Below, one piece after another: positions 878 through 21,504 of a DNA stretch of 32,000 nt. Under the pieces are notes generated by a model. It worked only from the letters and a program-made list of their open reading frames with translations, ran no database searches and was not told the origin of the DNA. The stretch covers positions 480,001-512,000 of the forward strand of contig NZ_CP030918.1 of NCBI RefSeq assembly GCF_003324675.1, written 5' to 3'. Position 1 is the first letter of the stretch; every line of letters begins with the position of its first letter. A program made the position numbers and the translations under genes. The stretch is from Paracoccus suum. GTDB taxonomy: Bacteria; Pseudomonadota; Alphaproteobacteria; Rhodobacterales; Rhodobacteraceae.

Positions 878-1470
878 ACATCGTCTTTGACATCGGCAAC
901 GTGCTGCTCCGCTGGGACCTCTGGCCTGCATTCGAGGACGAATTCGCAACGCCAGCCGAGATGACGGCCTATCTGGACGAGATCGGCTTTCACGACTGGA
1001 ACCTGCAGCAGGATCGTGGCCGCAGCTGGGCCGAAGCGCATGACGATCTGCGCGCCCGGCACGGCGCGAGGGCCGAGCCCGCGACGCGCTATGCGGCCCG
1101 CCACGCGCTGACCATCCAGACGCCCATTACTGGCACATGGGCGCTGCTCGACCGACTGGCGCCGCGCCATTCGCTGTTCGCGATCACCAACTGGTCGGCC
1201 GAGACCTGGGCCGACGCGCTGCGCCTGCATCCCCGGCTGGGCCAGGTATTCCGCGACATCGTGATCTCGGGACGTGAGAAACTGGCCAAGCCCGACCCGG
1301 CGATCTTTCGGCTGTTTCTGGACCGCAACGGGTTGGCGGCGGGCGATTGCCTGTTCATCGACGACAATGCGGCCAATGTCGCGGCGGCACGCGAGGTGGG
1401 CATGGACGCGGTGCGGTTCACCGACCCCGAGGCGCTGGAGCGCGATCTGACCGCGCGGGGCCTGCTATGA
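874..1470 (+). CDS. HAD-superfamily phosphatase, subfamily IA (YihX-like, FDxGNV type)
   Basis: 198 aa. HAD motifs are visible: motif I FDIGNVL, motif II ITNWS, motif III KLAKPD, motif IV FIDDNAANV. The ATG overlaps the phnI stop (ATGA at 874-877). Confidence 0.85.
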   Translation: MNIVFDIGNVLLRWDLWPAFEDEFATPAEMTAYLDEIGFHDWNLQQDRGRSWAEAHDDLRARHGARAEPATRYAARHALTIQTPITGTWALLDRLAPRHSLFAITNWSAETWADALRLHPRLGQVFRDIVISGREKLAKPDPAIFRLFLDRNGLAAGDCLFIDDNAANVAAAREVGMDAVRFTDPEALERDLTARGLL

Positions 1471-1531
1471 CCCCTGCCAGACACGCGCCGACCATTCAGC
1501 CCCCCTGCCCCCAATCGCCGGAGCTCCTGTC

Positions 1532-2371
1532 GTGACCGATCAGGCCTTCAACTTTGCCTATCTGGACGAGGACACCAAGCGGATGATCCGCCGGGCGATC
1601 CTGAAGGGCCTCGCGGTGCCGGGTTATCAGGTACCCTTTGCCAGCCGCGAGATGCCGATGCCCTATGGCTGGGGCACCGGCGGGGTCCAGGTCACAGCCG
1701 CCTGCCTGGTACCCGAGGATGTGCTGAAGGTCATCGACCAGGGTGCCGACGACACCACCAATGCGGTCAGCATCCGCAAGTTCTTCCAGCGCACCGCCGA
1801 CGTCGCCACGACCGAGCGCACCGGCGAGGCGAGCGTCATCCAGACCCGCCACCGTATCCCCGAAACCCCGCTGCGCGAGGGGCAGGTGCTGGTCTATCAG
1901 GTGCCGATCCCCGAACCGCTGCGCTTCCTCGAGCCGCGCGAGGTCGAGACGCGGCGCATGCATGCGCTGTCGGAATACGGGCTGATGCAGGTGCGCCTTT
2001 ACGAGGATATCGCCCGCCACGGTGAGATTGCGACCGCCTACGCCTATCCGGTGATGGTCAACGGCCGGCATGTGATGGACCCCTCGCCCATCCCGCGGTT
2101 CGACAACCCCCGGATGCACATGTCGCCGGCGATCCAGCTGTTCGGCGCCGGGCGCGAGCAGCGCATCTACGCCTTGCCGCCGTGGACCGAGGTCGTCAGC
2201 CTCGATTTCGACGACCACCCCTTTACCGCATCCAAGGCGGGCGGCTGCTGCGCGCTGTGCGGCGCGGACAGCAGCTATCTGGACGAAGTCATCACCGACG
2301 ACAGCGGCACGCGGATGTTCGTCTGCTCGGATACCGATTTCTGCACCTCCCGGCAGGAGGATGCCGCATGA
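1532..2371 (+). CDS. phnJ: alpha-D-ribose 1-methylphosphonate 5-phosphate C-P lyase PhnJ
   Basis: 279 aa with a GTG start preceded by GGAG. The protein is PhnJ-like throughout (FNFAYLDE...GYQVPFASREMPMPYGWGTGG) and has a C-terminal Cys cluster (CALCG...CSDTDFC). Confidence 0.95.
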   Translation: MTDQAFNFAYLDEDTKRMIRRAILKGLAVPGYQVPFASREMPMPYGWGTGGVQVTAACLVPEDVLKVIDQGADDTTNAVSIRKFFQRTADVATTERTGEASVIQTRHRIPETPLREGQVLVYQVPIPEPLRFLEPREVETRRMHALSEYGLMQVRLYEDIARHGEIATAYAYPVMVNGRHVMDPSPIPRFDNPRMHMSPAIQLFGAGREQRIYALPPWTEVVSLDFDDHPFTASKAGGCCALCGADSSYLDEVITDDSGTRMFVCSDTDFCTSRQEDAA

Positions 2372-3189
2372 GCTATGCCACGACCGCTGCCCTTGCCGGC
2401 GCCGATGCCTCCGTCATCGCCGTTGCGGAGGCCGATCCGCCCCTGTTGCGGGTCGAGGGCCTCGGCAAATCCTACGGCAGCCGCATCGGCTGCGCGGATG
2501 TCTCGTTCGATCTGTGGCCGGGCGAGGTCATGGGCATTGTCGGCGAAAGCGGCTCGGGCAAGTCGACGCTGCTATCCTGTCTTGCCGGGCACATGGCGCC
2601 CGATGCCGGCCGCGTGATGTTCGACGGCCGCGACACCGTCACGATGCCGGAGGTCGAGCGCCGGCGCCTCGGCCGCACCGACTGGGCCTTTGTCCACCAG
2701 AACCCCCGTGACGGGCTGCGCATGGCGGTCAGCGCCGGCGGCAATGTCGGCGAGCGGCTGATGGCCGTCGGCGCGCGCCACTATGGCAATATCCGCGAGA
2801 CGGCCGAGGACTGGCTCGGCCGGGTCGAGATCGACGCCAGCCGGATCGACGACCGCCCGCGCCAGTTCTCGGGCGGGATGCAGCAGCGGCTGCAGATCGC
2901 GCGCAACCTGGTGACCGGCCCGCGGCTGGTGTTCATGGACGAGCCGACGGGCGGCCTCGACGTGTCGGTGCAGGCGCGCCTGCTGGACCTGTTGCGCGGG
3001 CTGGTGCGCCGGCTGGGGCTGTCGGCGGTGTTGGTGACGCATGATCTGGCCGTGGTGCGGCTGCTGGCCGACCGGCTGATGGTGATGAAGGATGGCCGGG
3101 TGGTCGAAGCCGGGCTGACCGATCAGGTGCTTGACGATCCCCAGCATCCCTATACCCAGCTGCTGGTCTCATCCGTGCTGCAGGTCTGA
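2368..3189 (+). CDS. phnK: C-P lyase system ATP-binding protein PhnK
   Basis: The ATG at 2368 overlaps the phnJ stop (ATGA). Walker A is GESGSGKST, the signature is FSGGMQQR, and the C-terminus is HPYTQLLVSSVLQ as in E. coli PhnK. The upstream part of the 2182 ORF overlaps phnJ and was not used. Confidence 0.93.
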   Translation: MSYATTAALAGADASVIAVAEADPPLLRVEGLGKSYGSRIGCADVSFDLWPGEVMGIVGESGSGKSTLLSCLAGHMAPDAGRVMFDGRDTVTMPEVERRRLGRTDWAFVHQNPRDGLRMAVSAGGNVGERLMAVGARHYGNIRETAEDWLGRVEIDASRIDDRPRQFSGGMQQRLQIARNLVTGPRLVFMDEPTGGLDVSVQARLLDLLRGLVRRLGLSAVLVTHDLAVVRLLADRLMVMKDGRVVEAGLTDQVLDDPQHPYTQLLVSSVLQV

Positions 3190-3192
3190 GCC

Positions 3193-4152
3193 ATGATCCA
3201 CGCCTACGCCACAAGCGACCACTGCCTTGTGCCCCTGCCCGAGGACGCGCCGCTGGCCAGCGCGCGCTGGATTGACATGTTCGATCCGCAGCCGGCCGAG
3301 GTGGCGGCAGTCGACAGCCTGGGCTTTTCCGTCCCGACCCTCGAGGACATGGAGGAAATCGAGATCTCGAACCGCCTCTTTCGCGAGGGCGAGACCGATT
3401 ACATGACCGCGGTCCTGCCCGGCGCGGGACCGGACGGCCGCATCGTGGCGATGCCCGTGACATTCATCCTGTCACTCGACCGCTTGGTCACAGTGCGCCA
3501 CCACGAGCCGCGTCCCTTCGTCACCTTCCCGACCCGGGCCGATCGCGGTACGGCCGGGGTGGTCAATGCCGATCGCATCTTTCTGGGCCTGATGGAGGAG
3601 ACTGTCTCGCGCCTCGCCGACCTGATCGAGGGTGTCGGACGGGTGTTGGACCTGGTCGGCGGGCATGTCTTCGACGGCGGCGGCAGCGCCAAGGACGCGG
3701 TCCTGCGCGTCGCGCTGATGAAGATCGGCCAGCAGGCCGAGGTCATGGCCCGGGTGCGCCTGGGGTTGCTCTCGATCGAGCGGGTGCTGAGCTTTTACAC
3801 CGCCACCGCCGATGCGCGCGACGATGTCGAAAAGCTGCGCGCCCTGTCGCGCACGCTGAACCGCGACGTGCAGGCGCTGGAGGTTCATGCCGATTTCCTC
3901 GGCAACCGGATCGGCATGACGGTCGATGCGACGTTGGGCCTGATCAACCTGCAACAGAACAACACCGTTCGCGTGCTGTCGGTGGTCGCGGCGCTGTTCC
4001 TGCCGCCGACGGTGATCGCCTCGATCTACGGCATGAACTTCGACCACATGCCCGAGTTGCATTGGGCCTTTGGCTATCCCTTCGCGCTGGGGCTGATGGC
4101 CCTGTCGGCGCTGCTGATCTACCTGCTGGCGAAATGGAAGAAATGGTTATGA
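3193..4152 (+). CDS. CorA-family divalent metal ion channel
   Basis: 319 aa with a soluble N-domain, a YGMNF signature, and two C-terminal hydrophobic helices ending KWKKW. It starts 3 nt after the phnK stop, and its stop overlaps the phnL start. Confidence 0.85.
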   Translation: MIHAYATSDHCLVPLPEDAPLASARWIDMFDPQPAEVAAVDSLGFSVPTLEDMEEIEISNRLFREGETDYMTAVLPGAGPDGRIVAMPVTFILSLDRLVTVRHHEPRPFVTFPTRADRGTAGVVNADRIFLGLMEETVSRLADLIEGVGRVLDLVGGHVFDGGGSAKDAVLRVALMKIGQQAEVMARVRLGLLSIERVLSFYTATADARDDVEKLRALSRTLNRDVQALEVHADFLGNRIGMTVDATLGLINLQQNNTVRVLSVVAALFLPPTVIASIYGMNFDHMPELHWAFGYPFALGLMALSALLIYLLAKWKKWL

Positions 4153-4835
4153 TCCGGATCGAGAATGTCGCCAAGGATTTCACCCTACACAATCAGGGCG
4201 GCACGGTCCTGCGGGTGATGGAGGATGCCAGCCTGACCATCGCCCCGGGGGAATGCGTCGGGCTGATCGGCGCCTCGGGCGCAGGAAAATCGACGCTGAT
4301 GCGCATGGTCTGGGGCAACTACCGCGCCGCCAGCGGCCGCATCATGGTCGGCGATACCGATGTCGCACAGGCCGACCCCCGCGCCATCACCCGGCTGCGG
4401 CGCGGCACGCTCGGCTATGTCAGCCAGTTCCTGCGGGTCGTGCCGCGCGTGCCGACGCTGGACGTCGTGGCCGAGCCCCTCCTGACCCTGGGCACGCCCG
4501 AGCCCGAGGCAAAGGCCCGCGCCGCTGCTATGCTGCAGCGGCTGAACATTCCGCAGCGCCTATGGGGGCTGTCGCCGACGACCTTTTCGGGGGGCGAGCA
4601 GCAGCGGGTCAACATCGCCCGTGGCTTTATCCACCCCTCGCCTGCACTGCTGCTGGACGAGCCGACCGCCAGCCTCGACGCCGCCAACCGCGAGCAGGTG
4701 CTGCAGCTGATCGAGGAGGCCAAGGCGCGCGGCGCGGCTATCCTCGGGATCTTTCACGACGAGGCCGCCCGCGATCGGGTCTGCGACCGTTGCATCGACG
4801 TGGCCGGGTTCGCGCCCAAAGCCGCAGCGGCGTGA
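4149..4835 (+). CDS. phnL: C-P lyase system ATP-binding protein PhnL
   Basis: The ATG at 4149 overlaps the corA-like stop (ATGA). MIRIENVAKDFTLHNQGG..., Walker A GASGAGKST, FSGGEQQRVNIARGF and GIFHDE closely resemble E. coli PhnL. Confidence 0.92.
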   Translation: MIRIENVAKDFTLHNQGGTVLRVMEDASLTIAPGECVGLIGASGAGKSTLMRMVWGNYRAASGRIMVGDTDVAQADPRAITRLRRGTLGYVSQFLRVVPRVPTLDVVAEPLLTLGTPEPEAKARAAAMLQRLNIPQRLWGLSPTTFSGGEQQRVNIARGFIHPSPALLLDEPTASLDAANREQVLQLIEEAKARGAAILGIFHDEAARDRVCDRCIDVAGFAPKAAAA

Positions 4836-5392
4836 TAGCGCCCGTGGATCAGGCAGCCGCCCGGGCCTTTGCGCTCGTCGGGCCGTCGGGCGCGGGTAAG
4901 GATACGCTGCTCGCGGTGGCAAAGGCAGCGCGGCCGGACCTGCTGCTGGCCCGGCGCGTCATTACCCGCCCGAGCGAGGCGGGCGGCGAGGATTTCGAGG
5001 GCGTCAGCAACGCCGAGTTCGACGCCCGGAGGCCCGAGTTCGCCCTGACCTGGGCCGCCCATGGACTGCGCTATGCCATCCCCGCCAGCCTGCGCGCGGC
5101 CCAATGCGCGGGCCGCACCGTCATCTTCAACGGCTCGCGCGGGATGCTGGCCGAGGCGGCGCGCGCCTTTGCCCCGCTGTCAGTGATCGCGCTGGAAGCC
5201 GCGCCCGAGGTGCTGGCCGCCCGGCTGGCTGCGCGCGGACGCGAGGACGCCGCCGATATCCGCGCCCGGCTGGCGCGGGCCGACCTGTCCCTGCCCGAAT
5301 TGCCGGGCGTTCCGGTTCACAGGATCGACAATTCCGGCGACCTGGGCGCGGCGGTGGCGGCGCTGCTGGCCGTTCTGGACCGCGGCCGATGA
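4832..5392 (+). CDS. phnN: ribose 1,5-bisphosphate phosphokinase PhnN
   Basis: The GTG at 4832 overlaps the phnL stop (GTGA). The protein is 186 aa with P-loop GPSGAGKD and PhnN-like WAAHGLRYAIP and NGSR motifs. The long upstream part of ORF 4253.. overlaps phnL and was not used. Confidence 0.88.
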   Translation: MIAPVDQAAARAFALVGPSGAGKDTLLAVAKAARPDLLLARRVITRPSEAGGEDFEGVSNAEFDARRPEFALTWAAHGLRYAIPASLRAAQCAGRTVIFNGSRGMLAEAARAFAPLSVIALEAAPEVLAARLAARGREDAADIRARLARADLSLPELPGVPVHRIDNSGDLGAAVAALLAVLDRGR

Positions 5393-5394
5393 GC

Positions 5395-6075
5395 CTAGGC
5401 GGACAGCGGCAAGCGGCGGATCAGGTGGAAGCGGCCCTCGGCGTCCTCGCCCATCAGGCTCAGCGCCTCGATCGGCTGCGGGTCAGCCAGCAGCGGTGCG
5501 AGGCGAGGCTCGAGCGCGGCGCTGGCGCGTGCGGCAGTGTCCGCGTCCAGATTGCCGGTCAGCGTCATGTGGAACTGGAAATCCTCCATCACATGGGGAT
5601 AGCCCCAGCGTTGCAGGTGATCGCGCTGCCGTGGGCTGAGGCGGTCGGGATTGCGCCGCGCAATTTCGGCCGGGGTCAGGGGCGCGCGAAAGCGGTCAAG
5701 GGCTGCGACCAGCCGCGCCTCCAGCCCCGCCAGCGCCGCGCTGCGGGCGGTCGGGATCAGCGCCAGGAATCCGCCGCCCAGCCGTGCCAGTCGCAGGCCG
5801 CCGGCAAGGCCGAAGGCTGCCTCGGTCGCGCAGAAATTGGCAAAGGCAGCCTCCAGGGCGGCACGCTCGCCCGCCAGCCGGAACGGGGCTTTCATCGTCG
5901 CGTGAAAGCCATAGCGGCGCGGGGTATCGGTCAGCGCTGCCATGTCGAGCCCGTCAATCCGTGGCTGCGGCACCGCGCGGCCGGCAGCCACGTCCCAACC
6001 CAGCCATGCGGCCCCAAAATCGCCCAGCGCGCCGGGCGCCGTGTAATAGACCGCAAATCGTGCCAGACCCTGCAT
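5395..6075 (-). CDS. DUF1045-type 2H phosphoesterase (putative phosphonate-metabolism cyclic phosphodiesterase)
   Basis: I chose the start at Met 6075 (MQGLARFAVYY), which is preceded by GGGAGGA. Two H-x-T motifs (GFHATMKAPF and FQFHMTLTG) mark the 2H superfamily. The gene sits inside the phn cluster. Confidence 0.8.
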   Translation of the reverse strand: MQGLARFAVYYTAPGALGDFGAAWLGWDVAAGRAVPQPRIDGLDMAALTDTPRRYGFHATMKAPFRLAGERAALEAAFANFCATEAAFGLAGGLRLARLGGGFLALIPTARSAALAGLEARLVAALDRFRAPLTPAEIARRNPDRLSPRQRDHLQRWGYPHVMEDFQFHMTLTGNLDADTAARASAALEPRLAPLLADPQPIEALSLMGEDAEGRFHLIRRLPLSA

Positions 6076-6128
6076 GGTCCTCCCCTGGGGTTGCATCAAC
6101 GACATGTCCCTGCGCCAGACGCCCACCG

Positions 6129-7304
6129 ATGACCAGCCAGAACCCGAGTATCCCGATGACCCAAGACGCGATCCTTGCCAATGCCATCCTGATCCTGCCG
6201 GGCGAGACGCGCCGCGGCGGCCTGCGCCTGAAGGACGGCGCGATCGCCGAGATCCTGGACGGCGCAGAAGTACCGGCCGGCGCGCTCGATCTGGACGGCG
6301 ACTACCTCGCACCCGGCCTCGTCGAGTTGCACACCGACAACCTGGAGCAGCATCTGCAGCCGCGTCCCGGCGTGAACTGGCCTCATGCGGCGGCAATCAT
6401 CGCCCATGATGCCGAGTTGGCGGGCGTCGGCATCACCACCGTGTTCGACGCGATGCGCGTGGGGTCTATCAACAGCGGCGACCGGACCACCGATTACGCC
6501 CGCTACGCGCGCCCGCTGGCGACGGAACTGCTGGCAATGCGGGCCACCGGGGCGCTGCGGATCAGCCATTTCCTGCACCTGCGCGCCGAGGTCTGCAGCG
6601 AGACCCTGATCGAGGAACTAGACGAATTCGACGAAGGTGACCGCGTCGGCCTCATCAGCCTGATGGACCATACGCCCGGGCAGCGACAGTTTCGCGACGT
6701 CTCGCAACTGGAAAAATATGTGAAGGGCAAGTTCAACGTCGATGACGCCGGCTTCGCCGCCCATATCGCCCGGCTGCACGAGTTGCGGGCCCGCTTTGGC
6801 GACGATCACGAGGCGGCGGCAGTGGCGGTGGCCGGGCGCCTTGGGGCAGTGCTGGCCAGCCATGACGACACCACTGCCGAGCAGGTCGAGACCTCGGCCC
6901 GCTACGGCATCCGCCTGGCCGAGTTCCCGACCACCATCGAGGCTGCCGCCGCCTGCCACGAGCATGGCATCAAGACCATCATGGGCGCGCCCAACCTGAT
7001 CCGCGGTGCCAGCCACAGCGGTAACGTCGCCGCGCGCGAGTTGGCCGAGGCCGACCTGCTGGACATCATCAGCAGCGATTACGTCCCCTCGGCGCTGCTG
7101 ACCTCGGCCAATGTGCTGGCCGATCTGTGGGACGATCTGCCGCGCGCGATCGCGACCGTTACCGCGACTCCGGCCGCCGCCGCCGGGCTGGCGGATCGCG
7201 GACACATCGCCCCGGGCATGCGTGCCGACCTGATCCGTTTCCGCCGCATGGGCGGCAATGCCGTGCTGCGTGAAACCTGGGTGCAGGGCCGCCGCGTCGC
7301 CTGA
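6129..7304 (+). CDS. phnM: alpha-D-ribose 1-methylphosphonate 5-triphosphate diphosphatase PhnM (amidohydrolase fold)
   Basis: Start at ATG 6129, with an alternative ATG at 6156. It shows the amidohydrolase hallmark (LAPGLVELHTDNLE) and SHDD / GAPNLIRGASHSGN segments like PhnM. The upstream portion of ORF 5784.. is antisense to the DUF1045 gene. Confidence 0.9.
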   Translation: MTSQNPSIPMTQDAILANAILILPGETRRGGLRLKDGAIAEILDGAEVPAGALDLDGDYLAPGLVELHTDNLEQHLQPRPGVNWPHAAAIIAHDAELAGVGITTVFDAMRVGSINSGDRTTDYARYARPLATELLAMRATGALRISHFLHLRAEVCSETLIEELDEFDEGDRVGLISLMDHTPGQRQFRDVSQLEKYVKGKFNVDDAGFAAHIARLHELRARFGDDHEAAAVAVAGRLGAVLASHDDTTAEQVETSARYGIRLAEFPTTIEAAAACHEHGIKTIMGAPNLIRGASHSGNVAARELAEADLLDIISSDYVPSALLTSANVLADLWDDLPRAIATVTATPAAAAGLADRGHIAPGMRADLIRFRRMGGNAVLRETWVQGRRVA

Positions 7305-8683: not shown

Positions 8684-9625
8684 ATGAGCTATTATGGACG
8701 CCTTCCGACGGGCTACAGCATTGGCGGTAGCATTTCGCCCGTTGGCGAGACCGACAGTTATCGGGTGACCTTGGTTCCCGGGCTGACTTATTCCATTACT
8801 GCCCAAGGTTCCTCAAGCGGCAACGGTACGCTGGTCGATCCTCATATGGCGCTGACCACCCTTAGCGGGCGTCAGCTTGCTTATGATGACGACATATCGA
8901 GCAGCAATTACGATGCGCAAATTGTGTGGACAGCGCCCGCAGGTGGTTCTTCTCTCGATTATTTTGTCAACGTCGCGGAGAATGGGGATAATGCGAGTGG
9001 CACATACAAGCTGACCGTCTCTGCCGGATATGCATCTAACTACGCGGACCGCGTGGTTGGGAGTGCCTACGGCGATGCCATTGCCGGTATGGACGGTAAC
9101 GACCAGTTGGCGGGCGGCAACGGGAATGACTACCTGTATGGCCAGAACGGCAACGATTACCTGATGGGCTTGAATGACCACGACTACCTCAGCGGCGCAA
9201 CGGGCAACGATTCACTTCGCGGCGGGACGGGGTCAGATCGCTTGGTCGGCGGAGCCGGAGCGGACCAGTTGGTAGGTGGATCAGGCGCTGACCGCTTCAT
9301 CTTCTACGCAGGAGATTCTGGTCGCTATGATTACGATGCCATTATGGCTGGCGATGGAGGCCTTGCATTCGACGGAATCGGCGCGGCGGCAGGCGATGTC
9401 ATCGACCTTTCGGCGATCGACGCCAACCCTTATGTGGCCGGTAACCAAGCGTTCCAGTTCAGCTCGACCCTGACAACTGGGACGGCCTACCTTACCGAGA
9501 ACACACGCGGCGACACTGTGCTCATGGCCTCGACCGACGCGGATAGCGAACCCGAACTCGTGATCCAGATCCGCGACGGCGCATACACAGCGAGCCAATA
9601 CGCCGCCAACGACTTCATCCTGTAG
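8684..9625 (+). CDS. RTX-type calcium-binding protein with N-terminal PPC-like (pre-peptidase C-terminal) domain and type I secretion-style C-terminus
   Basis: 313 aa with RBS AGAGGAG upstream. The N-terminus (GETDSYRVTLVPGLTYSI...YKLTV) is PPC-like. About 8 GGxGxDxUx nonapeptides follow. The C-terminus DVIDLSAIDAN...GNQAFQF is typical of T1SS substrates, and there is no Sec signal peptide. Confidence 0.85.
   Translation: MSYYGRLPTGYSIGGSISPVGETDSYRVTLVPGLTYSITAQGSSSGNGTLVDPHMALTTLSGRQLAYDDDISSSNYDAQIVWTAPAGGSSLDYFVNVAENGDNASGTYKLTVSAGYASNYADRVVGSAYGDAIAGMDGNDQLAGGNGNDYLYGQNGNDYLMGLNDHDYLSGATGNDSLRGGTGSDRLVGGAGADQLVGGSGADRFIFYAGDSGRYDYDAIMAGDGGLAFDGIGAAAGDVIDLSAIDANPYVAGNQAFQFSSTLTTGTAYLTENTRGDTVLMASTDADSEPELVIQIRDGAYTASQYAANDFIL
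9062..9301 (+). repeat. RTX nonapeptide (GGxGxDxUx) repeat block inside the CDS
   Basis: Consecutive units: GMDGNDQLA GGNGNDYLY GQNGNDYLM GLNDHDYLS GATGNDSLR GGTGSDRLV GGAGADQLV GGSGADRFI. Confidence 0.85.
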
Positions 9626-13216: not shown

Positions 13217-13236
13217 GGGCACGTTTTCAGGTGCCC
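13217..13236. terminator. Possible bidirectional hairpin between convergent genes
   Basis: Inverted repeat gggcac / gtgccc (13217-13222 / 13231-13236) with an 8-nt loop gttttcag that contains the stop codon of the giant gene. The stem is short and there is no clear U-tract. Confidence 0.25.
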
Positions 13237-16200
13237 ACGCTGGTAAGGACAGAGATTTCGCGCTCGATCATCAGATCGGCGTCAGATTGCGCCCGCACTC
13301 GCCGGGCCGCGGCCTCCGACAGGCGGAGGAACAAATCCGGTTCGTGATACAAGCGCTCAATAGCGTCGGCGAGCGCCTGAGCATCATCAGGCGGGACGAG
13401 AATTCCGCAGGTTTCGTCCACGAACTCTGGAACTGCGGCGACAGCGGTAGTGACCGGCACCAGGCCTGACGCCATCGCCTCGTCGCGCGACACGCCATGA
13501 GTATCGGTGCGCGTGGGGACCAGAAATATGCCGGCCTCACGGTGAAGGCCCGCGATCTCGGTATGCGACAGAAAGCCTTTCTGGATTTCGACATTATCCA
13601 TGCCGCGCAGCGGGGCCACCGTCTCCTCCAACAGCGGGCCGTCACCTGCGATGCGGAAGTGCATCTGGTCGAACCAAGGCTTGGCTGACAGGATCCGAAT
13701 CGCGGCGACCGCCAGATCATTGGCGTATACGCTGGATGCAAACGGCCGAAGCAGCAGTACTTTTAGCCTGTCTTCGGTTTTTTTGGGCTGGTAGGCAAAT
13801 ATCCCGGTGTCGATCGGATTGTGAATGACCTCGATTTGGCCAGGCACAAAGCTGATCCCCAGATCCTCAGCCGCCGTATCCGCAAGCTGCTGCGAGACGA
13901 ACACCAGCTTCAGGTTCGGATGTTGCGGCCTCAGAACGCCGTGCCAGAAGGCCATACGCGCATCACTGGCGCGCTGTGCCGCCTCACGCTCTGCTGGCGT
14001 GGTGTAAAGGAATGCGCGCCGCGTCCAAGGCTGAATGTCTACGCCGTGGCACCAGACGACCACCCTCACCCGATCTAGATGCGGTCGCAGGATGTCCCAC
14101 ACTTCCGGCGTCAGGAAATGAACTGCCACGGTGTCATAACCGCCCTCGGCGAGCATCTTGTCGAGCGTCACACGGTCAGCCGTCATCACGTCGGTGTTTT
14201 CGAACTCGGTGAAGGTCGGCGCGACGCTCTCTCGGAAGCGCAATACGGAGGGGCGGAGCCCGAGGGCGGCATAGCGGCGCACCCGACTGTGCAGGAAGGC
14301 GTTACGATAGAGGTCCGAATAGGCCGGGTATTGGTTTGTGACGATCAACACCCGCCCCCGGTCCAACAGGGTGCTCGGCGTCAACTGCCGATGGGTCAGG
14401 TCGAGCGACTTGATCTCGCACATACCGCTGCCGAGGACGCGCAGGCCGAGTCGAACCGAGGCGGTGCCGGCGGGGGGCTCGGCGGTCTCGTTGCGCAGCG
14501 GATGGATCATCGCGTGGCCAAGGCGGCTGCCCTTGGCGTCGAGCCAAATCATTACGAACGAAATCGAGAGGCCCGGGCTCACGTCGACATGACAACGCAA
14601 CACTCCATTCTCGAGAACCTCGGACGGGCGGAGCGATGTCGTGCTGTAGATGTAGGCATGCTTGCCGTCGGCCAATTCGGAGGCGACCTCGAACGAGATC
14701 GGTGAGACGACGATCTGAACACCCGGTGCGCTTTGGCCGCGGAACAGCCGGGCCAAATCACGGTTGTCGAGACGGCGTGCCGTCGCCGGCATGTCTGCCG
14801 GCTTGATGGACTCGGCCCTCGAGAGGATCTCGGGCAGGGGCAGGCCGGGGTCGATGCCGCGCAGGTCGTCGACCACGCTGGCGATGGTGGTGCGGTCCGC
14901 GACCTCATGGCAGTAGTTGAACGGATCGACCGACAGGACGCGATCGGCTCGCCAGTCACCGGTATCGATTCCGTCAAGCAGCCCCGCGCGGTCCTGTTCG
15001 TTCAGCAATGCGCCACGGATGATCCCCCGCCGGCGGGAAATGCCCGCGACCGGGATATAGGCCGCGGCCGGGTCCATCAACGTGCCATCCCCCGTGGGGT
15101 AGGCAGCCTTGCCGATCACATCCGCCCCGCTGTAGCGAGTCGCGAGCACCAGATCGCGCAGGTAGTTCGGCCCGTAATAGTCCTTGGCGCTGAAGCAAGC
15201 CAGCCAGCCAGCCGCCAGTTCTTCAGTCAGGTCGGGCGGGGCTTCCCCCTCGGATAGCAGGCGCACGCGCGGATCGTGGTCCGCCGCCCTGAACCCTTCC
15301 GGGGCAATCAGCAGCAGCCTGGCGTCGCGGTGGGTCTGGGCGGTGAACGCGGCGAGCAGGTGGCGTGCAGATTCCTCGTCCGGCGCGTGGGCGATGACCG
15401 TCACGGCTGGCAGGTCCGCCTGCGGCGCGCGATCCGGCAGCGCCTTTGAGACGACATAGGCCAACCGGTCGGCCGAGGTATGCTGCGACATGATCTTGCG
15501 CAAACCTGCAAGGCGCAGCCGGTCGGCATGGCCGGGCTGGTCCGCGACCTTTTCAAATCGGCGCGTAACCTCGCCGTGATCGTCCGACGAGATCACCAGA
15601 TCCCCGAACATCATGCGCAGCCCGCGCGAGAAATTGCTGATCGTCACGGTACCCGAGGCGAGCAGTTCATAGACGCGCCGGGCAAACATGCTCTGCGATT
15701 GCTTCACCGAATTCAGGTTGATCGCGTAGCGATAGCCCTTGTAAGCGACGTCGATCCGGCTCGCCGGCAGCGTGCCGACGATGAACGTCCTGAAGGACTC
15801 CGGAAAGGCGTAGTTCGGGTCGTCCCTGCCCCAGTTGCGGTCAAAGATGTCGAGCGGTCGCAGCAGCGGCAGGCCGGCGGTGAAGTTTTCCAGATCGCGG
15901 GTCCGCTCGGGGTAGCGGGTATAATACGCGCCGGCGAAGTTGATCGCATCGCGGCGGGCGAACAGTTCGATCGGATTGTGCACGCGCGGCTGGCAGGCGA
16001 AGGGCAGCAGCCAGACCCGGTCGTGGCGCAGCGCCTGCCGGTAGAGGTGGATGCAGTCGATATCGGTCGTAAAGACGTGGTCGAACAGCTTGGCGGTGCT
16101 CAGAAAAGAGGTGTAGTGGACCGGATCTTCCTTGTTCCAGAAGACCGTCGGCACGCCATTCTTGCGGCACCATCCCACCAGGTCATGCAGTTCCTGGCTG

Positions 16201-18998
16201 CGGTGGCCAATCTTGCGGTCCCAGCTGTCGTTCTTGCCGCGCCAAGCAGATTCAACGAACAGAAGGTCCGGCTTGAAGCCCTCGATCTCGGACTGCCAGT
16301 TGCCGGCGGTCAGGCCGAGCAGATCGGCCTCGGGCGCAAAGCAGGTGTAGGTGAAATCGTCCATGATTGCGGCGACACGCAGGTCCTTGCGCGGAGCAAG
16401 CAGAATGTCGGCAACTCTCGCCGCGCCCTCGCGCGCGGCGAGGGGCTCCGGCGGGGCGTAACCATCACGAAAGATCGGCGCCGTGATGGCGGGTGCGGCG
16501 GCGGCCTTGGCCTGCACCTCGGTCGAGGATGCGGCCTGCGGCGCCTCCCCGGGTGGGGGCCCCGACGTGGGCGCGGCGACCGGCCCGGGCCTCGCCGGAG
16601 GTGCCGCTTCGACGGGCGGGGGCAAAAGACCCGGCGGCGGCGAGTCGAGATGGGTGCGGAACACCCGCGCCATCCGCACCGGAATGGCGGCAAAGCCGCG
16701 CACCGAGGCGGCGCCATCGCGCAGCACCTCGCCGGCGCGATAGGTGCGGCTGTTGGCCATGCTGACCAGTCGACCGCGCAGCAGCGAGTTCTGCCCCTGA
16801 GCTTCACGCAGCCGCCGCTCGGTCATGGTCAGCGCCGCCCGCAGTTGCGGGACGGTCTGGTCGTAACGACCTGTCAGTTCGCGGTACTTGGTATTTGCGG
16901 CGTCAAGTTTCTGGCGCGCGGTCTCGGCCTCAATCTGCCGTTTTTGGCTCTCGCTGCGGACACCAACCAGCTGGCTCTGGAGTTCGGCGATCTCCCGCTG
17001 ATCAGCCTCGCGCCGGGTTTTGGCGGCAGCCATATCCATCGCATGGATCTGGGCTTTGGCCTTGGCGTCACGCAAGTCGGCCTGGATGCGGTCGTAGTCC
17101 GCAGTCAGCGATTTGATATCGGCGAGTGCGCCTGACAGCGCGGCCGTCTTGCTCTCGACCGCGCTGCGAATCGCCGCCGTGTCCTTGCGCGCGGCCTGCA
17201 ACTGTTCACTCACGTTGCGGTATTTGGTGTTCGCTTCGCTCAGGGCCTTTTTGAGGCGCGCAAGTTCCAATCCGCTGCGATACGATTCAACCGCGAGGCG
17301 CAAGCCCGCTTGTTCCAACCGGTCTTTCTGGTCTGCCAACGCCGACGGGAGGAAAAGATGGGTCGGCGTCGCGTTGAACGTATCCCAGTACTTATAGCCC
17401 AAAGGGTGCAGCAGACGCAGGACGGCACGAAAGCTGGCCTCGTTTTCACACTCGACATACAGTATCGGCTGGTCGCGCTTGATTAGATCCTCGGCTCCGG
17501 CGAGAACCGCGCTTTCCATTCCCTCCACGTCGATCTTGATGGCGCGGACTGGTCCCGGAAACGACTGCGAGTCAAGCGTCACAACGTCAATTTCACCCGC
17601 GCCCAACTCGAGGTGTTGGCCACCCAGATTTTCTGGACGCTCGACGCCGAACTTTGCCCGACCAGCGCTGGCGCCGACCCCGAATTTGCGGATCGACAGC
17701 CGCTCGCCGAGATCATTTTCGGCGATGGACTGTTCGATCGCCTCAACAAGGTGGGGGTTGGGCTCGAAGGCAATGACGCGGCAATCTGCGACGACGGCCA
17801 GATACATCGCGTGATTACCGATATTCGCGCCGATATCGAGGACCAGATCGCCTGGCGATAGGCGCGACGCCATGTCGCGCAGCATTTCGCGCTCGTAAGG
17901 TTCGCGCGTCTGGGCAATGCCCTTCTGGATGTAGTCCGTGGCAGAATCCGGCAGGACCATCCGATAACTGCGGTCCCCTTCGATGACCTCGAACGGACCG
18001 TCGGGGGCGGCAGGCGTGGCCTCGTCAGAGGTGACGACCGGCTCGGCGCGCGTTGGCTGATGCGCCTTTACTTCGTCAACAGGGCTGCGCGATTCGGCCA
18101 TCAAATCTTCCGTATGGGTCTGTTTCAAGCCTTGCGACTTGAGGGCGATGGGTTGAGCCCCCGGCTGAATGGTATCTCCCGGCGCAGCTGGCATGTGAAG
18201 GGCGGCCGAAGGGCGGTGCCGGGAGGAAGGATCATTCTGACCAGCGATCTCGCCCGCCTGAATGATCTCTCGTAGCTGGGAAATCGCGGTATCGTAAATG
18301 CTTTGCTGATAGTGAAACGGTTCGAGGCCCCATTTGTGCCCATGATCGGCCAACAGAGAGTCTGTTTGATATGTCAACCATCGTGTTTGCGGCAGCGCCT
18401 CAGCCAGGGCGTCATACATTTTTGCAAGTAAAAGATTCTGACGTTTCGCCACGGCCGCGGGATATTCGTCGATTGGAGCGCCCGATTGATCTGTCAGCGC
18501 CCAGAATACGCGATTCACCACCAGCCGTTCCTGCCAGCCTCGCGCCTTGATCAGGGTAGCAAAGTGGATCAGGCCTTCTCGCCACCGATCGTAACGCTCT
18601 GGATCGCTATTCACCAAGCGACGACCCGCCATAGAACCAGCAGCGGAATCAGCCCCAGATAAGAATTCGGGGGAAACTGTGACCGCGTCACCGCTCGCCC
18701 GTAACAAGATATCAAATCGCTCGTCGATGAAATCCAGTAAGATCAGATCGAAATCGTCATCCCGCAAGGCGGCGAGCAGGCTCTTGTCCATGTCCCGCAA
18801 TACCATGCGGCGCTGAAACGGGCTGTCGATGCGGGCCAGGAGCGCATGGTCCACTAGCGGATGCGCGTTAAGCACCGCAAAACTGCTGCGGGCATAATAG
18901 TCGCTAATCACGAAATCCGGACTCGGGCTGAGCGCAAAGATGTCGCGGCTGGCGCAACTTCCGATGATCAGCACTCGGGTCTGGCGGCCTTCGTTCAT
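13227..18998 (-). CDS. Giant multidomain glycan-assembly protein: unknown N-domain + FkbM-family methyltransferase + long coiled coil + Pro/Ala linker + CgeB-like glycosyltransferase + GT-A-like module + beta-rich module + GT4 glycosyltransferase
   Basis: A single uninterrupted frame. The Met at 18998 forms an ATGA overlap with the wecC stop; the longest ORF starts at 19013. Motifs: LDIGANIGNH / AFEPNP / IKIDVEGME (FkbM); INLNSVKQSQSMFARRVYELLASG (CgeB-like GT-B); GVSRDEAMASGLVPV (GT4). Confidence 0.9.
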   Translation of the reverse strand: MNEGRQTRVLIIGSCASRDIFALSPSPDFVISDYYARSSFAVLNAHPLVDHALLARIDSPFQRRMVLRDMDKSLLAALRDDDFDLILLDFIDERFDILLRASGDAVTVSPEFLSGADSAAGSMAGRRLVNSDPERYDRWREGLIHFATLIKARGWQERLVVNRVFWALTDQSGAPIDEYPAAVAKRQNLLLAKMYDALAEALPQTRWLTYQTDSLLADHGHKWGLEPFHYQQSIYDTAISQLREIIQAGEIAGQNDPSSRHRPSAALHMPAAPGDTIQPGAQPIALKSQGLKQTHTEDLMAESRSPVDEVKAHQPTRAEPVVTSDEATPAAPDGPFEVIEGDRSYRMVLPDSATDYIQKGIAQTREPYEREMLRDMASRLSPGDLVLDIGANIGNHAMYLAVVADCRVIAFEPNPHLVEAIEQSIAENDLGERLSIRKFGVGASAGRAKFGVERPENLGGQHLELGAGEIDVVTLDSQSFPGPVRAIKIDVEGMESAVLAGAEDLIKRDQPILYVECENEASFRAVLRLLHPLGYKYWDTFNATPTHLFLPSALADQKDRLEQAGLRLAVESYRSGLELARLKKALSEANTKYRNVSEQLQAARKDTAAIRSAVESKTAALSGALADIKSLTADYDRIQADLRDAKAKAQIHAMDMAAAKTRREADQREIAELQSQLVGVRSESQKRQIEAETARQKLDAANTKYRELTGRYDQTVPQLRAALTMTERRLREAQGQNSLLRGRLVSMANSRTYRAGEVLRDGAASVRGFAAIPVRMARVFRTHLDSPPPGLLPPPVEAAPPARPGPVAAPTSGPPPGEAPQAASSTEVQAKAAAAPAITAPIFRDGYAPPEPLAAREGAARVADILLAPRKDLRVAAIMDDFTYTCFAPEADLLGLTAGNWQSEIEGFKPDLLFVESAWRGKNDSWDRKIGHRSQELHDLVGWCRKNGVPTVFWNKEDPVHYTSFLSTAKLFDHVFTTDIDCIHLYRQALRHDRVWLLPFACQPRVHNPIELFARRDAINFAGAYYTRYPERTRDLENFTAGLPLLRPLDIFDRNWGRDDPNYAFPESFRTFIVGTLPASRIDVAYKGYRYAINLNSVKQSQSMFARRVYELLASGTVTISNFSRGLRMMFGDLVISSDDHGEVTRRFEKVADQPGHADRLRLAGLRKIMSQHTSADRLAYVVSKALPDRAPQADLPAVTVIAHAPDEESARHLLAAFTAQTHRDARLLLIAPEGFRAADHDPRVRLLSEGEAPPDLTEELAAGWLACFSAKDYYGPNYLRDLVLATRYSGADVIGKAAYPTGDGTLMDPAAAYIPVAGISRRRGIIRGALLNEQDRAGLLDGIDTGDWRADRVLSVDPFNYCHEVADRTTIASVVDDLRGIDPGLPLPEILSRAESIKPADMPATARRLDNRDLARLFRGQSAPGVQIVVSPISFEVASELADGKHAYIYSTTSLRPSEVLENGVLRCHVDVSPGLSISFVMIWLDAKGSRLGHAMIHPLRNETAEPPAGTASVRLGLRVLGSGMCEIKSLDLTHRQLTPSTLLDRGRVLIVTNQYPAYSDLYRNAFLHSRVRRYAALGLRPSVLRFRESVAPTFTEFENTDVMTADRVTLDKMLAEGGYDTVAVHFLTPEVWDILRPHLDRVRVVVWCHGVDIQPWTRRAFLYTTPAEREAAQRASDARMAFWHGVLRPQHPNLKLVFVSQQLADTAAEDLGISFVPGQIEVIHNPIDTGIFAYQPKKTEDRLKVLLLRPFASSVYANDLAVAAIRILSAKPWFDQMHFRIAGDGPLLEETVAPLRGMDNVEIQKGFLSHTEIAGLHREAGIFLVPTRTDTHGVSRDEAMASGLVPVTTAVAAVPEFVDETCGILVPPDDAQALADAIERLYHEPDLFLRLSEAAARRVRAQSDADLMIEREISVLTSVGT

Positions 18999-20275
18999 GC
19001 GGCTTTGGTCCATGCACCGCGGGTGTCGATGACACGGGTTCCCGGACGCAGCTTTGGCGCCGCGGACTTGAACTGGCTGTGATCGACCAGCAGGACGGCG
19101 ATGTCAGCCTTGGCCAAGGCGCTTTCCGTGTCAGCCAGGCGTGCGGCTTGCAGGCCCTCGGGCAGCGCGTCCGTGTGGGGTTCAACCACCATCAGGCCGG
19201 GGAGCTGGGCCGACAGCGTGCGGGCGATGGCGAGGGCGGGGCTTTCGCGCAGATCGTCGATATCGGCCTTGAAAGCCAGGCCGAAGCAGGCGACCTGCGG
19301 CTGGCGGCCGGGGTTGGCGTCGGTCCAGTCGGCGATCGCGGCGTGGACGCGCGCGATGACCCAGCCGGGCTTGCTGTCATTGACCTCGCGCGCGGTGCGG
19401 ATCAGGCGTGCCTCGGCAGGGACCTGGCTTACGATGAACCACGGGTCGACCGCGATGCAATGTCCCCCGACACCCGGGCCGGGTTGGAGGATGTTGACGC
19501 GTGGATGACGGTTCGCGAGGCGGATAAGTTCCCAGACGTCGATGCCGAGGCGGTCGCAGATCAGCGACAATTCGTTGGCAAAGGCAATGTTGACATCGCG
19601 AAAGCTGTTCTCGGTCAGCTTGGCGAGTTCTGCCGTGCGGCAGTCGGTCTCGATGCACTCACCCTCGACGGCCAGCTCGTAGAGCGCGCGCGCCCGGGTA
19701 GCGCAAGCCGCGGTCATGCCGCCGATGATCCGGTCGTTGCTGACCAACTCCTCCAGCGCGCGGCCGGGCAGGATGCGTTCCGGGCAATGGGCGATGCGGA
19801 TGTCCGACTGCTCGCCATGGGTGGCGGGAAAGGTCAGGTCGGGCCGCTCGGCCGCCAGCCAGTCCGCCATCTGCTCGGTCGCGCCGACTGGGCTGGTCGA
19901 TTCGAGGATCACCAGATCCCCCGCTTTCAGGACCGGCGCAATGGCCCGCGCGGCGCTTTCGATATAGCGCAGATCGGGGTCATGTGCGCTCTCACCCTCG
20001 CGGAACGGGGTTGGCACGGCGATGAGGAATGCGTCGGCCGCCTCAGGGGTGGTCGTCGCGCGCAAATGACCCGAAGCGACGACCTCCTGCAGCGCCTCCT
20101 CCAGTCCCGGCTCGACGATATGGGTCTGCCCGGCATTGATCTTGTCGACCGCCGCGGCATTGACGTCAAAGCCGATCATGCGCACCCCGCGCCGGGCAAA
20201 GACGACCGCCGTCGGCAACCCGATATAGCCCAGCCCGACCATGCAGACGGTGCCGAAAGAGGTGCTGTCGCTCAT
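18995..20275 (-). CDS. wecC: UDP-N-acetyl-D-mannosamine dehydrogenase
   Basis: 426 aa and near-colinear with E. coli WecC as I remember it ([11 protein letters not shown]..., [56 protein letters not shown]). The ATG overlaps the wecB stop (ATGA). Confidence 0.93.
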
Positions 20276-21405
20276 GCTAAGAGGCCTTTGAAATCGAGGA
20301 GGGCGGTCAGGATGCGGTCGACGGCCTTGCCGTCGCCGTAGGGGTTATGGGCGAAGCTCATGGCATCGTAAGCGGCCTGATCGGTCATCAACCGCGAGAC
20401 TGCGCCCACGATCGCACCGCGATCCGTGCCGACGAGCTCGACCGTGCCGGCATCGATTGCCTCGGGGCGTTCGGTCCTGTCGCGCATCACCAGCACGGGC
20501 TTGCCCAGAGAGGGGGCCTCTTCCTGGATGCCGCCAGAGTCGGTCAGAATGATATGCGCCCGGCGCATCAGCCAGACGAAGGGCAGATAATCCAGCGGCT
20601 CGATCAGGTGGACATTGCCCAGCCCACTGAGGATGCGCTGCACGGGCTCGCGCACATTCGGGTTAAGATGCATCGGATAGACGATTTGCAGCGTGGGAAA
20701 GCGCGCTGCGAGGTCGGCCAGCGCCTGGCAGATCGATTCAAAACCGCCACCAAAGCTTTCCCGGCGGTGGCCGGTCACCAGCAGCACCGGGCTGCCCTGG
20801 GGCAGAAAGTCGAACTGCGCCGCCAGTTCGGCCGTGAGGGTCGGGTCGGCATCAATGCGCGCCACGACCTCCAGCAACGCATCGATCACGGTGTTGCCGG
20901 TGACAGTGATGCGGTCCGCGGCCACTCCCTCGGCCAGCAGGCAGTCGCGCGACTTGGCCGAAGGGGCGAAGTGCAGCGTTCCCATAGCGCCGACGATCTT
21001 GCGATTACCCTCCTCGGGCCAAGGTGAATAGATATTTCCGGTCCGCAGGCCGGCCTCGACATGACCCACCGGGACGCGCCCGTAATAGGCGGCGAGGGTG
21101 CTTGCGAGGGTGGTCGCCGTGTCGCCATGAACCAGAACGATGTCTGGCGCCTCGGCCTCGATCACCGGCTTGAGGCCCATCAGGATGGCGGCGGTCACGC
21201 CGTTCAGGTCCTGCCCGCTACGCATGACGTTCAGATCGTGATCGGGGACGATCCCGAAAAGGGCGGTCACCTGATCGAGCATCTCGCGGTGCTGGGCAGT
21301 GACACAGACGCGGCTCTCAAAGCGCGGATCGCGGGCCAAGCCCAGGACCAGCGGCGCCATCTTGATCGCCTCTGGCCGGGTTCCGAAGACGGAAAGGACT
21401 TTCAT
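20272..21405 (-). CDS. wecB: UDP-N-acetylglucosamine 2-epimerase (non-hydrolysing)
   Basis: I chose the start at Met 21405 ([19 protein letters not shown]). [34 protein letters not shown] and [21 protein letters not shown] match WecB. Confidence 0.93.
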
Positions 21406-21504
21406 CGTAATATCCCGGTTCAATCTCGCCGGGTCTATATATGGTGACAGAAGGCATGGCCAGCCGGGCAAATCACGGCCTGCGCCTCTCCGCCGCCGGC
21501 CGCC

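Follow-up and report, generated by a model that had tools for sequence, protein, structure and literature searches.

What does a bacterium make with a single polypeptide in which a methyltransferase, a long helical spacer and several glycosyltransferase modules are joined? This question is raised by a locus of Paracoccus suum, located in a stretch of 32,000 nucleotides (nt) that we call here the window (contig NZ_CP030918.1, positions 480,001 to 512,000), in which one unbroken open reading frame (ORF) of 1928 codons occupies positions 13227..19013 of the minus strand. We refer to it as the giant gene. A preliminary description of this DNA had compared the encoded protein to the WbdD/WbdA and WbbB systems, in which a chain terminator is held at a distance from the polymerase by a coiled-coil ruler. 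On the basis of the analysis presented here, we find it rather probable that the P. suum protein is polymerase, terminator and ruler at once, for a polysaccharide containing N-acetylmannosaminuronic acid (ManNAcA) and exported by an ATP-binding cassette (ABC) transporter.

According to the proposed mechanism, the protein would work in the cytoplasm, either soluble or peripheral, where it would assemble, modify and terminate the ManNAcA-containing polysaccharide, with UDP-N-acetylmannosamine (UDP-ManNAc) and UDP-ManNAcA supplied by the two genes located upstream. The C-terminal core, composed of a CgeB-like glycosyltransferase module of GT-B fold, a GT-A-like module, a beta-sandwich similar to carbohydrate-binding modules (CBMs) and a GT4 module, would extend the non-reducing end of the chain on a lipid-linked primer, and the beta-sandwich may hold the nascent chain. 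A helical and probably oligomeric spacer of ~190 residues, together with a Pro/Ala linker, would keep the FkbM-family methyltransferase away from the polymerase, so that it could reach the growing end only after the chain is long enough; O-methylation of the chain end would then block extension and thereby set the chain length. The DUF6270 domain at the N-terminus would be an accessory SGNH-like enzyme acting on the polymer. The substrates, the terminal rather than in-chain position of the methyl group, the ruler function and the export route are the parts of this mechanism that we infer. We regard it as the best explanation because the methyltransferase at the tip comes from two unrelated families, the spacer length varies more than 4-fold, the methyltransferase is either fused or encoded by an adjacent gene, and an ABC transporter is present in many of the related loci.

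Organization of the giant protein

The model starts from domain identities, gene linkage and a comparative pattern, which came directly from the analysis. All eight segments of the preliminary description were recovered at their places by Pfam, NCBIfam, AlphaFold2, Foldseek or composition, five of them by Pfam/NCBIfam profiles, either above curated cutoffs or as weak coiled-coil-type matches. The segments are listed below, with the evidence for each given in parentheses.

13227..19013, minus strand: whole ORF, 1928 aa (amino acids); 1923 aa from the likelier start, ATG 18998
18309..18968, minus strand: DUF6270 domain, aa 16-235 (Pfam, AlphaFold2, Foldseek, conservation)
17979..18248, minus strand: low-complexity linker, aa 256-345 (comparison with the gene junction of relatives)
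17334..17978, minus strand: FkbM-family S-adenosylmethionine (SAM) methyltransferase, aa 346-560, the proposed chain-capping enzyme (PF05050, TIGR01444)
16764..17333, minus strand: helical, coiled-coil-like spacer, aa 561-750, the proposed ruler (composition, periodicity, profile matches)
16389..16763, minus strand: post-spacer conserved motif (aa ~751-790) and Pro/Ala-rich linker (aa ~790-875) (consensus, composition)
15429..16388, minus strand: CgeB-like GT-B glycosyltransferase module, aa 876-1195 (PF13524)
14769..15428, minus strand: GT-A-fold module, aa 1196-1415 (AlphaFold2, Foldseek)
14364..14768, minus strand: beta-sandwich CBM-like module, aa 1416-1550 (AlphaFold2, Foldseek)
13230..14363, minus strand: GT4 (GT-B) glycosyltransferase module, aa 1551-1928 (Pfam, family conservation)

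Two in-frame ATG codons are present at the 5ʹ end of the giant gene (window 18995-19013). The second one, at 18998, is the likelier start, and it shares the sequence ATGA with the stop codon at the end of the upstream dehydrogenase gene; such an overlap implies translational coupling and a product of 1923 aa, equal to the database entry. This entry, 100% identical to our sequence, is annotated solely as a Paracoccus suum "FkbM family methyltransferase". No transmembrane segment was found in the 1928-aa protein, for which the top 19-residue Kyte-Doolittle mean was 1.44. All residues that are invariant across 63 aligned family members are kept in the P. suum protein, thus none of its modules looks decayed. 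A scan for a terminator and a promoter at the 3ʹ end of the giant gene found nothing.

The methyltransferase and the spacer

The assignment of one of the segments to the FkbM family was borne out by profile matches at aa 391-542, with 52.9 bits for PF05050 (cutoff 22.7) and 84 bits for TIGR01444 (cutoff 37.7), and the family profile also matched the FkbM structure with PDB code 2py6 (E 5e-10). The SAM-binding motif D-x-G-A-N-x-G, nearly invariant in the family, is present in P. suum as LDIGANIGNH.

A coiled coil had been proposed to follow the methyltransferase. This region (aa ~561-750) contains one Pro in 190 residues and shows a hydrophobic 3.5-residue periodicity with z = 2.1 in comparison to shuffled sequences, in agreement with the proposal; for the catalytic domains, the same score gave z < 1.3. 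Weak matches to the SMC, tropomyosin and TPR_MLP1_2 profiles were obtained over aa 582-753. If it were a continuous helix, the spacer (aa 561-750) would be ~28 nm long. The Pro/Ala linker of the preliminary description was likewise found, at aa ~790-860, with 11 Pro residues in aa 801-850.

In the FkbM-type homologues, the spacer between FkbM and the first glycosyltransferase ranges from 165 to 728 aa, the flanking catalytic modules being conserved, and the spacers are Pro/Gly-poor and heptad-rich throughout. Stutzerimonas has discrete spacer alleles of 189, 498 and 545 aa.

Right after the spacer, at 16650-16763 of the window (aa ~751-790), we noticed a family-conserved motif that reads approximately R-x-S-x4-LG-x2-L-x2-A-x2-S-x6-LP-x2-L-x-R. 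By analogy with the C-terminal region of WbdD, it could be a site of docking to the membrane or to a partner protein.

The four-module core

The CgeB-like module (aa 876-1195) had been recognized in the preliminary description, and its presence was confirmed by a match to PF13524 (Glyco_trans_1_2) at aa 1073-1187 with 56.7 bits (cutoff 25). It is the best-conserved part of the family, with typically ~55-65% identity and a range of 54-92% across the 120 matches listed from our database search. A stand-alone CgeB-like glycosyltransferase of ~330-360 aa, with ~32% identity to the module of the giant protein, accompanies the polymerase in loci of the kps type (among others L009 19800-20795, L010 14342-15337, L020 13192-14196 and L070 16151-17212), and it may be an adaptor or a priming transferase.

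For the following module, described earlier as GT-A-like, AlphaFold2 modelling of aa 1196-1550 placed a GT-A fold at aa ~1204-1410 (predicted local distance difference test, pLDDT, of 93). Foldseek matched it to SpsA, RmlT, TarP, WrtF and the heparosan synthase PmHS2 (E ~1e-5 to 1e-6, probability 1.0). Pfam returned no GT2 match for this module even at E <= 1, and the early nucleotide-binding position after strand 2 is not conserved. The residues Q1226, D1278, Y1284, D1287, G1301, K1302 and Y1367 are invariant. As judged from the model, this part of the protein is a putative glycosyltransferase of GT-A fold.

The beta-rich segment took the form of a beta-sandwich at aa ~1432-1538 in the AlphaFold2 model, and Foldseek matched it to CBMs and lectin-like tailspike domains. 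Finally, the GT4 assignment agreed with PF13439 at aa 1594-1736 and PF00534/PF13692 to aa 1904 (PF00534 at aa 1766-1904), and the motif R..D..GVSRDEAM..GL (R1835, D1837, G1840-V-S, D1844, E1845) is invariant in the family.

Gene neighbourhood in the window

Upstream of the giant gene, two further genes complete a three-gene unit on the same strand, packed with overlapping stop and start codons:

20272..21471, minus strand: UDP-N-acetylglucosamine 2-epimerase gene (WecB-like), the first of the three-gene unit
18995..20275, minus strand: gene of the UDP-ManNAc/UDP-glucose dehydrogenase family (WecC-like), whose stop overlaps the giant gene start

WecB and WecC are the pair of enzymes that make UDP-ManNAcA. 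The same linkage of wecB, wecC and the giant gene was found in Stutzerimonas, Sinisalibacter, Marinobacter and Caldimonas. The G+C content is 0.58-0.61 at positions 17001-19000 and 0.67-0.72 for most of the remaining window, which fits a horizontally acquired 5ʹ part of the giant gene, encoding DUF6270 and FkbM.

The flanking genes are housekeeping or unrelated ones, namely truB, an alpha/beta hydrolase, an M17 peptidase, NlpC/P60, a carbonic anhydrase, an RTX-repeat protein and a phn operon. The latter is a fragment of a phosphonate carbon-phosphorus lyase operon at 83-7304 (phnI, a HAD-family gene, phnJ, a phnK-like ABC ATPase and an amidohydrolase), and the RTX calcium-binding repeat protein, of 313 aa, is encoded at 8684-9625; both are unrelated to the giant gene.

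Distribution of the family and locus census

The database search gave more than 200 proteins of 1500-2000 aa. The 120 matches listed all share the order FkbM, spacer, CgeB-like module, GT-A, beta-sandwich and GT4. In a scan of one genome per species, the four-module core was found in at least 593 species genomes, distributed over Alpha-, Beta-, Gamma- and Epsilonproteobacteria, Nitrospira, Actinobacteria, Firmicutes, Planctomycetes, Verrucomicrobia and Chloroflexi, as well as one metagenome-assembled genome (MAG) of the archaeal Poseidoniales. On the contig of this MAG (L036), the core polymerase adjoins genes of an ABC-2 permease and an ATPase, and copies of WecB; the gene either reached archaea by horizontal transfer or was placed there by wrong binning.

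We then examined 85 loci, using heuristic ORF calling and BLAST clustering, with Pfam applied to cluster representatives only, so that the counts are approximate; one locus was cross-checked against precomputed annotation. In 52/85 loci, the gene directly upstream of that of the polymerase encodes a WecC homologue, and WecB is present in 47/85. A short ABC ATPase (~262 aa; range 227-270 aa) and an ABC-2 permease each occur in 41/85 loci, mostly on the same strand and just upstream. KpsD-like Poly_export proteins and a KpsE-like bitopic protein were found in 16/85 loci each, KpsS-like proteins in 6/85 and double-domain KpsC-like Capsule_synth proteins in 5/85. A complete kps-type arrangement was found in loci of Cupriavidus, Ralstonia pickettii, Aliarcobacter, Brucella/Ochrobactrum, Nitrotoga and Caldimonas.

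The methyltransferase was followed in 83 loci. A fused N-terminal methyltransferase is present in 37/83 loci, assigned by BLAST to FkbM in 19 and to a class-I type in 18. Pfam detected a class-I Methyltransf_11/23 domain, non-orthologous to FkbM, in nine of the ten non-FkbM tip proteins scanned. Polymerases of the short form (~1050-1260 aa) have nothing but the core, and a methyltransferase gene is located directly upstream of a core-only polymerase gene in a further 12/83 loci. Two representatives of these adjacent genes (~380-390 aa) were scanned, and both have a class-I or FkbM methyltransferase in their N-terminal part, with a coiled coil at the C-terminus. Thus, the architectural analogy to WbdD/WbdA and WbbB held in every comparative test that we ran, i.e. 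for the tip methyltransferase, the variable spacer, the split versions and the ABC transporters in 41 of the 85 loci.

The core occurs in Paenibacillus, Clostridia and Campylobacterota, in which glycans of flagellin and S-layer proteins are common, and in the S-layer glycan pathway of Geobacillus the protein WsaE combines a methyltransferase with rhamnosyltransferase domains. Such a distribution would fit a family that glycosylates a protein (flagellin or S-layer protein) rather than making a lipid-linked capsule or O-antigen. We regard this as very improbable: the annotated recurrent neighbour families are the ABC transporter, KpsD/E/C/S-like proteins, WecB/WecC, glycosyltransferases, Hepar_II_III and DUF6270, with no flagellar family among them, and the window contains no flagellar or S-layer gene. 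A flagellin/S-layer island, a candidate prompted by the CgeB-like domain and by the Firmicutes and Campylobacterota members, was rejected as a general reading on account of these non-flagellar neighbours.

Several further features of the family were noticed. Heparinase II/III-like proteins are encoded beside the polymerase in 20/85 loci (L001 15539-19775, L003 16892-19105, L087 23393-24821 and 17 more). In view of the uronate chemistry shared by lyases and epimerases, they might be lyases of the polymer, or else C5-epimerases that convert its ManNAcA to N-acetylgulosaminuronic acid (GulNAcA). Some family members (P0090 and P0114, the latter at L078 4135-10362; Colwellia, 2075 aa) carry a C-terminal radical-SAM/SPASM extension after GT4, and other members are annotated with PF24161, PF28160 or DUF3880.

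The DUF6270 domain and its fusion

The N-terminal domain, to which no family could be assigned in the preliminary description, does exist and is the Pfam family DUF6270; it is not, however, an integral part of a terminator head, being a separate gene in the nearest relatives and C-terminal in three family members. PF19786 matched aa 16-235 over its full length (positions 1-222 of 222; E 1.4e-62, 212 bits), and the AlphaFold2 model of aa 1-260 was of high confidence, with a pLDDT of 94. The best Foldseek matches in the PDB were GDSL/SGNH esterases and acylhydrolases (E ~3e-4, TM-score 0.4-0.55, ~10% identity), a significant but distant similarity from which an SGNH/GDSL-like fold is predicted.

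DUF6270 resembles the SGNH/GDSL esterases and the SGNH-like polysaccharide O-acetyltransferases in its predicted fold class, in a G-x-nucleophile motif after strand 1 and in its C-terminal histidines. The motif is GSC(A/V)SRD, and its G18-S19-C20 takes the place of the SGNH G-D-S block. C20 is conserved in 120 of 121 DUF6270 sequences and S19 is not invariant; H226, W228, H234, R42, D74, D94, R99, T112 and S114 are invariant in this set. The similarity is weak and there are differences: the nucleophile is Ser in SGNH/GDSL enzymes and Cys20 here, and the Asp of the D-x-x-H block is kept only in 81/121 sequences. The chemistry suggested by the model and the conserved residues is acyl transfer or ester hydrolysis with a Cys nucleophile, and most likely DUF6270 is an accessory enzyme that modifies the polymer, either an O-acyl (acetyl) transferase or an esterase. 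We found no paper mentioning DUF6270 in the literature, and this SGNH-like, Cys-type assignment, tied to polysaccharide synthesis, would be the first structural and contextual one for the family.

In the two nearest relatives (L086 and L080; 77-79% identity), DUF6270 has a gene of its own, located immediately upstream of that of the polymerase. In L086 (410-1320), the two genes are separated by a 94-nt gap with a strong ribosome-binding site, while in L080 (3796-4800) they overlap as ATGA. The linker of the P. suum protein (aa 256-345) matches the intergenic gap and the gene start of these relatives, read through, and the ancestral start M305 is still present, with GGAAGA ahead of it. The fusion therefore looks like the loss of a stop codon with read-through of a former intergenic region, and as an N-terminal fusion it is specific for the P. 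suum lineage.

The surviving ATG of M305 behind GGAAGA, the separate genes in both relatives and the low complexity of the linker may also indicate that the fusion is partly an artefact, and that DUF6270 is made in vivo as a protein separate from the FkbM-polymerase, either by internal initiation at M305 or because a sequencing error removed the stop codon. This is rather unlikely, as no stop codon interrupts the frame in the window, a deposited contig of 3.25 Mb contains the identical sequence, and independent C-terminal fusions show that fusion of DUF6270 is tolerated; it would in any case be compatible with the polymerase-terminator-ruler model. The C-terminal fusions, with DUF6270 placed after GT4, occur in three family members (P0004, P0109 and P0117), and a stand-alone DUF6270 gene is present in 15/85 loci, usually right after the polymerase gene. 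Since the position of DUF6270 relative to the spacer is free, it would rather be an enzyme that modifies the chain internally (e.g. an O-acetyltransferase) than a capping enzyme. In an Aliarcobacter MAG (L009 13169-16903), the core polymerase gene is followed by one for a protein of 1244 aa that opens with the DUF6270 motif (MKLFILGSCVSRD), which is another fusion partner of this domain.

Capping, in-chain methylation and export

A number of observations weigh against the model in which the P. suum protein caps its product and measures it with the spacer. The evidence for a coiled coil in this protein is moderate (z = 2.1). The GT-A module lacks the canonical DxD motif, and reads K-D1278-Y-Y-G. 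Searches with phmmer and with the family profile against the PDB gave no sequence homology to WbdD or WbbB, the only matches being GT4/glycogen synthase, FkbM 2py6 and coiled-coil chains. We found no methyltransferase, either fused or within 2.5 kb, in 28/83 loci, a count that may include misses; this suggests that the core can work without one. Neither an ABC transporter nor KpsC/S/D/E homologues nor an initiating transferase are encoded in the window (13 kb on one side and 11 kb on the other), KpsM and KpsT homologues are likewise missing from its 32 kb, and none of the export and initiation genes was found within 10 kb in Stutzerimonas, Sinisalibacter and Marinobacter. With the export genes not in the window, the assignment of P. 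suum to a pathway rests on its relatives. In the related loci that carry an ABC transporter, the ATPases are short (227-270 aa) and have no cap-binding module of the type found in Wzt of the cap-dependent O9a/O12-type systems, where it forms the C-terminal part of the protein. Capping would thus probably not gate export: a methyl cap would stop growth of the chain but probably not license its transport.

Some of these observations could also be explained by a polymerase with in-chain methylation, possibly accompanied by DUF6270 decoration, in which the helix would only oligomerise or scaffold the protein and the length would be set by competition between synthesis and export. The core polymerases with no methyltransferase detected nearby, the transporter ATPases without a cap-recognition module and the presence of DUF6270 at either end of the protein are in line with this explanation, and a 2025 review presumes that the length of ABC-dependent capsules results from synthesis and export (PMC12220298). 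However, a scaffold would leave unexplained the more than 4-fold range of spacer lengths between conserved flanks, the constant location of two unrelated methyltransferase families at the distal tip, and the WbdD-like layout of the two scanned split proteins, in which an N-terminal methyltransferase precedes a C-terminal coiled coil. In addition, all characterised coiled-coil proteins of this kind are terminators (PMC11231755). We consider in-chain methylation without a ruler unlikely, though it is the competing explanation to which we would give the most weight.

The lack of a transporter within the 32-kb window bears on yet another explanation, namely that the three-gene island is an orphan in P. 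suum, acquired horizontally without export machinery, so that its product is not exported or feeds some unrelated pathway, or the genes are not expressed. The housekeeping flanks (truB on one side, the M17 peptidase and NlpC/P60 on the other) and the drop in G+C would agree with such an origin. On the other hand, the ORF is intact over 5.8 kb with all family-invariant residues kept, and several Stutzerimonas and Pseudomonas genomes also have the minimal wecB-wecC-polymerase set with no transporter close by, suggesting that the exporters are encoded elsewhere. An orphan island is, in our opinion, a poor candidate, somewhat less probable even than an artefactual fusion.

Comparison with known systems

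An extended coiled coil is a marker of ABC-transporter-dependent assembly with a distal terminator, the precedents being WbdD, WbbB and O7 ORF6 (PMC11231755). ORF6 of Klebsiella pneumoniae O7 (Kelly et al. 2024) is a single protein that contains a methyltransferase-kinase, a coiled coil, a CBM and a pair of GT2 modules, and its chain termination was shown in vitro and in vivo (PMC11231755). It shares with the P. suum protein the N-terminal SAM methyltransferase head, the central coiled coil, a CBM-like domain and C-terminal glycosyltransferase modules. The head of O7 ORF6, however, consists of a class-I-like methyltransferase and an AmiN-like kinase that form a methyl-phosphate cap, whereas the P. 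suum head has FkbM and no kinase; the polymerase of the former has two GT2 modules, and that of the latter CgeB-like GT-B, non-canonical GT-A and GT4 modules. The CBM is located in the head of O7 ORF6 but inside the polymerase in P. suum. O7 uses dTDP-rhamnose, while the genes linked to the P. suum polymerase make UDP-ManNAcA, and ORF6 lies in an O-antigen (rfb) locus with wzm/wzt, transporter genes of a kind missing from the P. suum window. The preliminary description had named WbdD/WbdA and WbbB as precedents and had not recognized the combination as a described enzyme; our literature searches indeed gave no characterised orthologue, but O7 ORF6 is a closer precedent than WbbB. An identification of DUF6270 with the 'unannotated 223-aa kinase' of O7 ORF6 was considered and rejected, as the ORF6 domain is AmiN-kinase-like and DUF6270 is SGNH-like.

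WbbB of Klebsiella O12/Raoultella terrigena likewise has a terminator, a coiled-coil ruler and a two-module polymerase in one protein, but its terminator is a beta-Kdo glycosyltransferase (GT99; Kdo, 3-deoxy-D-manno-octulosonic acid) and the candidate terminator of P. suum is a methyltransferase. In WbdD/WbdA of Escherichia coli O8/O9a and Klebsiella O5/O3, a methyltransferase, with or without a kinase, forms the tip of a coiled coil, and the O-antigen length is determined by the length of this coiled coil. The polymerase there is a separate multi-glycosyltransferase protein, which corresponds to the split members of the P. suum family (12 loci); the catalytic families are unrelated, and the ATPases of the related loci are short (227-270 aa). 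Judging from the sequence searches, the likeness to WbdD and WbbB is architectural and not by descent.

The O-antigen precedent applies as far as the architectural logic is concerned. The related loci themselves are mostly of the kps type or from Gram-positive bacteria, which weakens a strictly O-antigen reading, and the product is likely more similar to a kps-type capsule than to an O-antigen, and likely a wall polymer in the Gram-positive members. KpsM/T/E/D/C/S-like genes, known from the kps-type (group 2/3) capsule systems of E. coli, Neisseria and others, also surround the polymerase in related loci, but none is present in the P. suum window. A brief published remark mentions, for the group 3 capsule clusters of E. 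coli, putative methyltransferase genes whose coiled coils vary in length (PMC13171606). The 2025 review states that chain-length control in ABC-dependent capsules is presumed and needs investigation, and presents no established terminator or ruler mechanism (PMC12220298). Our literature searches found no paper combining FkbM, coiled coil, glycosyltransferase and polysaccharide, and no characterised orthologue among ManNAcA capsule polymerases.

Outside a few enterobacterial O-antigens, neither rulers nor terminators have been proven. It is conceivable, though we put it forward as a speculation that is more likely wrong than right by some distance, that the family supplies a cap and a ruler to kps-type (group 2/3-like) capsules, and maybe also to Gram-positive wall polymers and in one archaeal lineage, and that DUF6270 and FkbM form a two-enzyme acyl/methyl capping head in P. 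suum and its close relatives, comparable to the kinase and methyltransferase of WbdD. The natural series of spacers (165-728 aa), together with the fused and split variants, provides a ready test of the ruler model in capsule systems, and the cassette could serve to make ManNAcA-containing polymers of defined length. In comparison with the characterised systems, the ruler and terminator logic is already known, while the set of domains is new, the family is widespread, and the pathway class is one without a demonstrated ruler.

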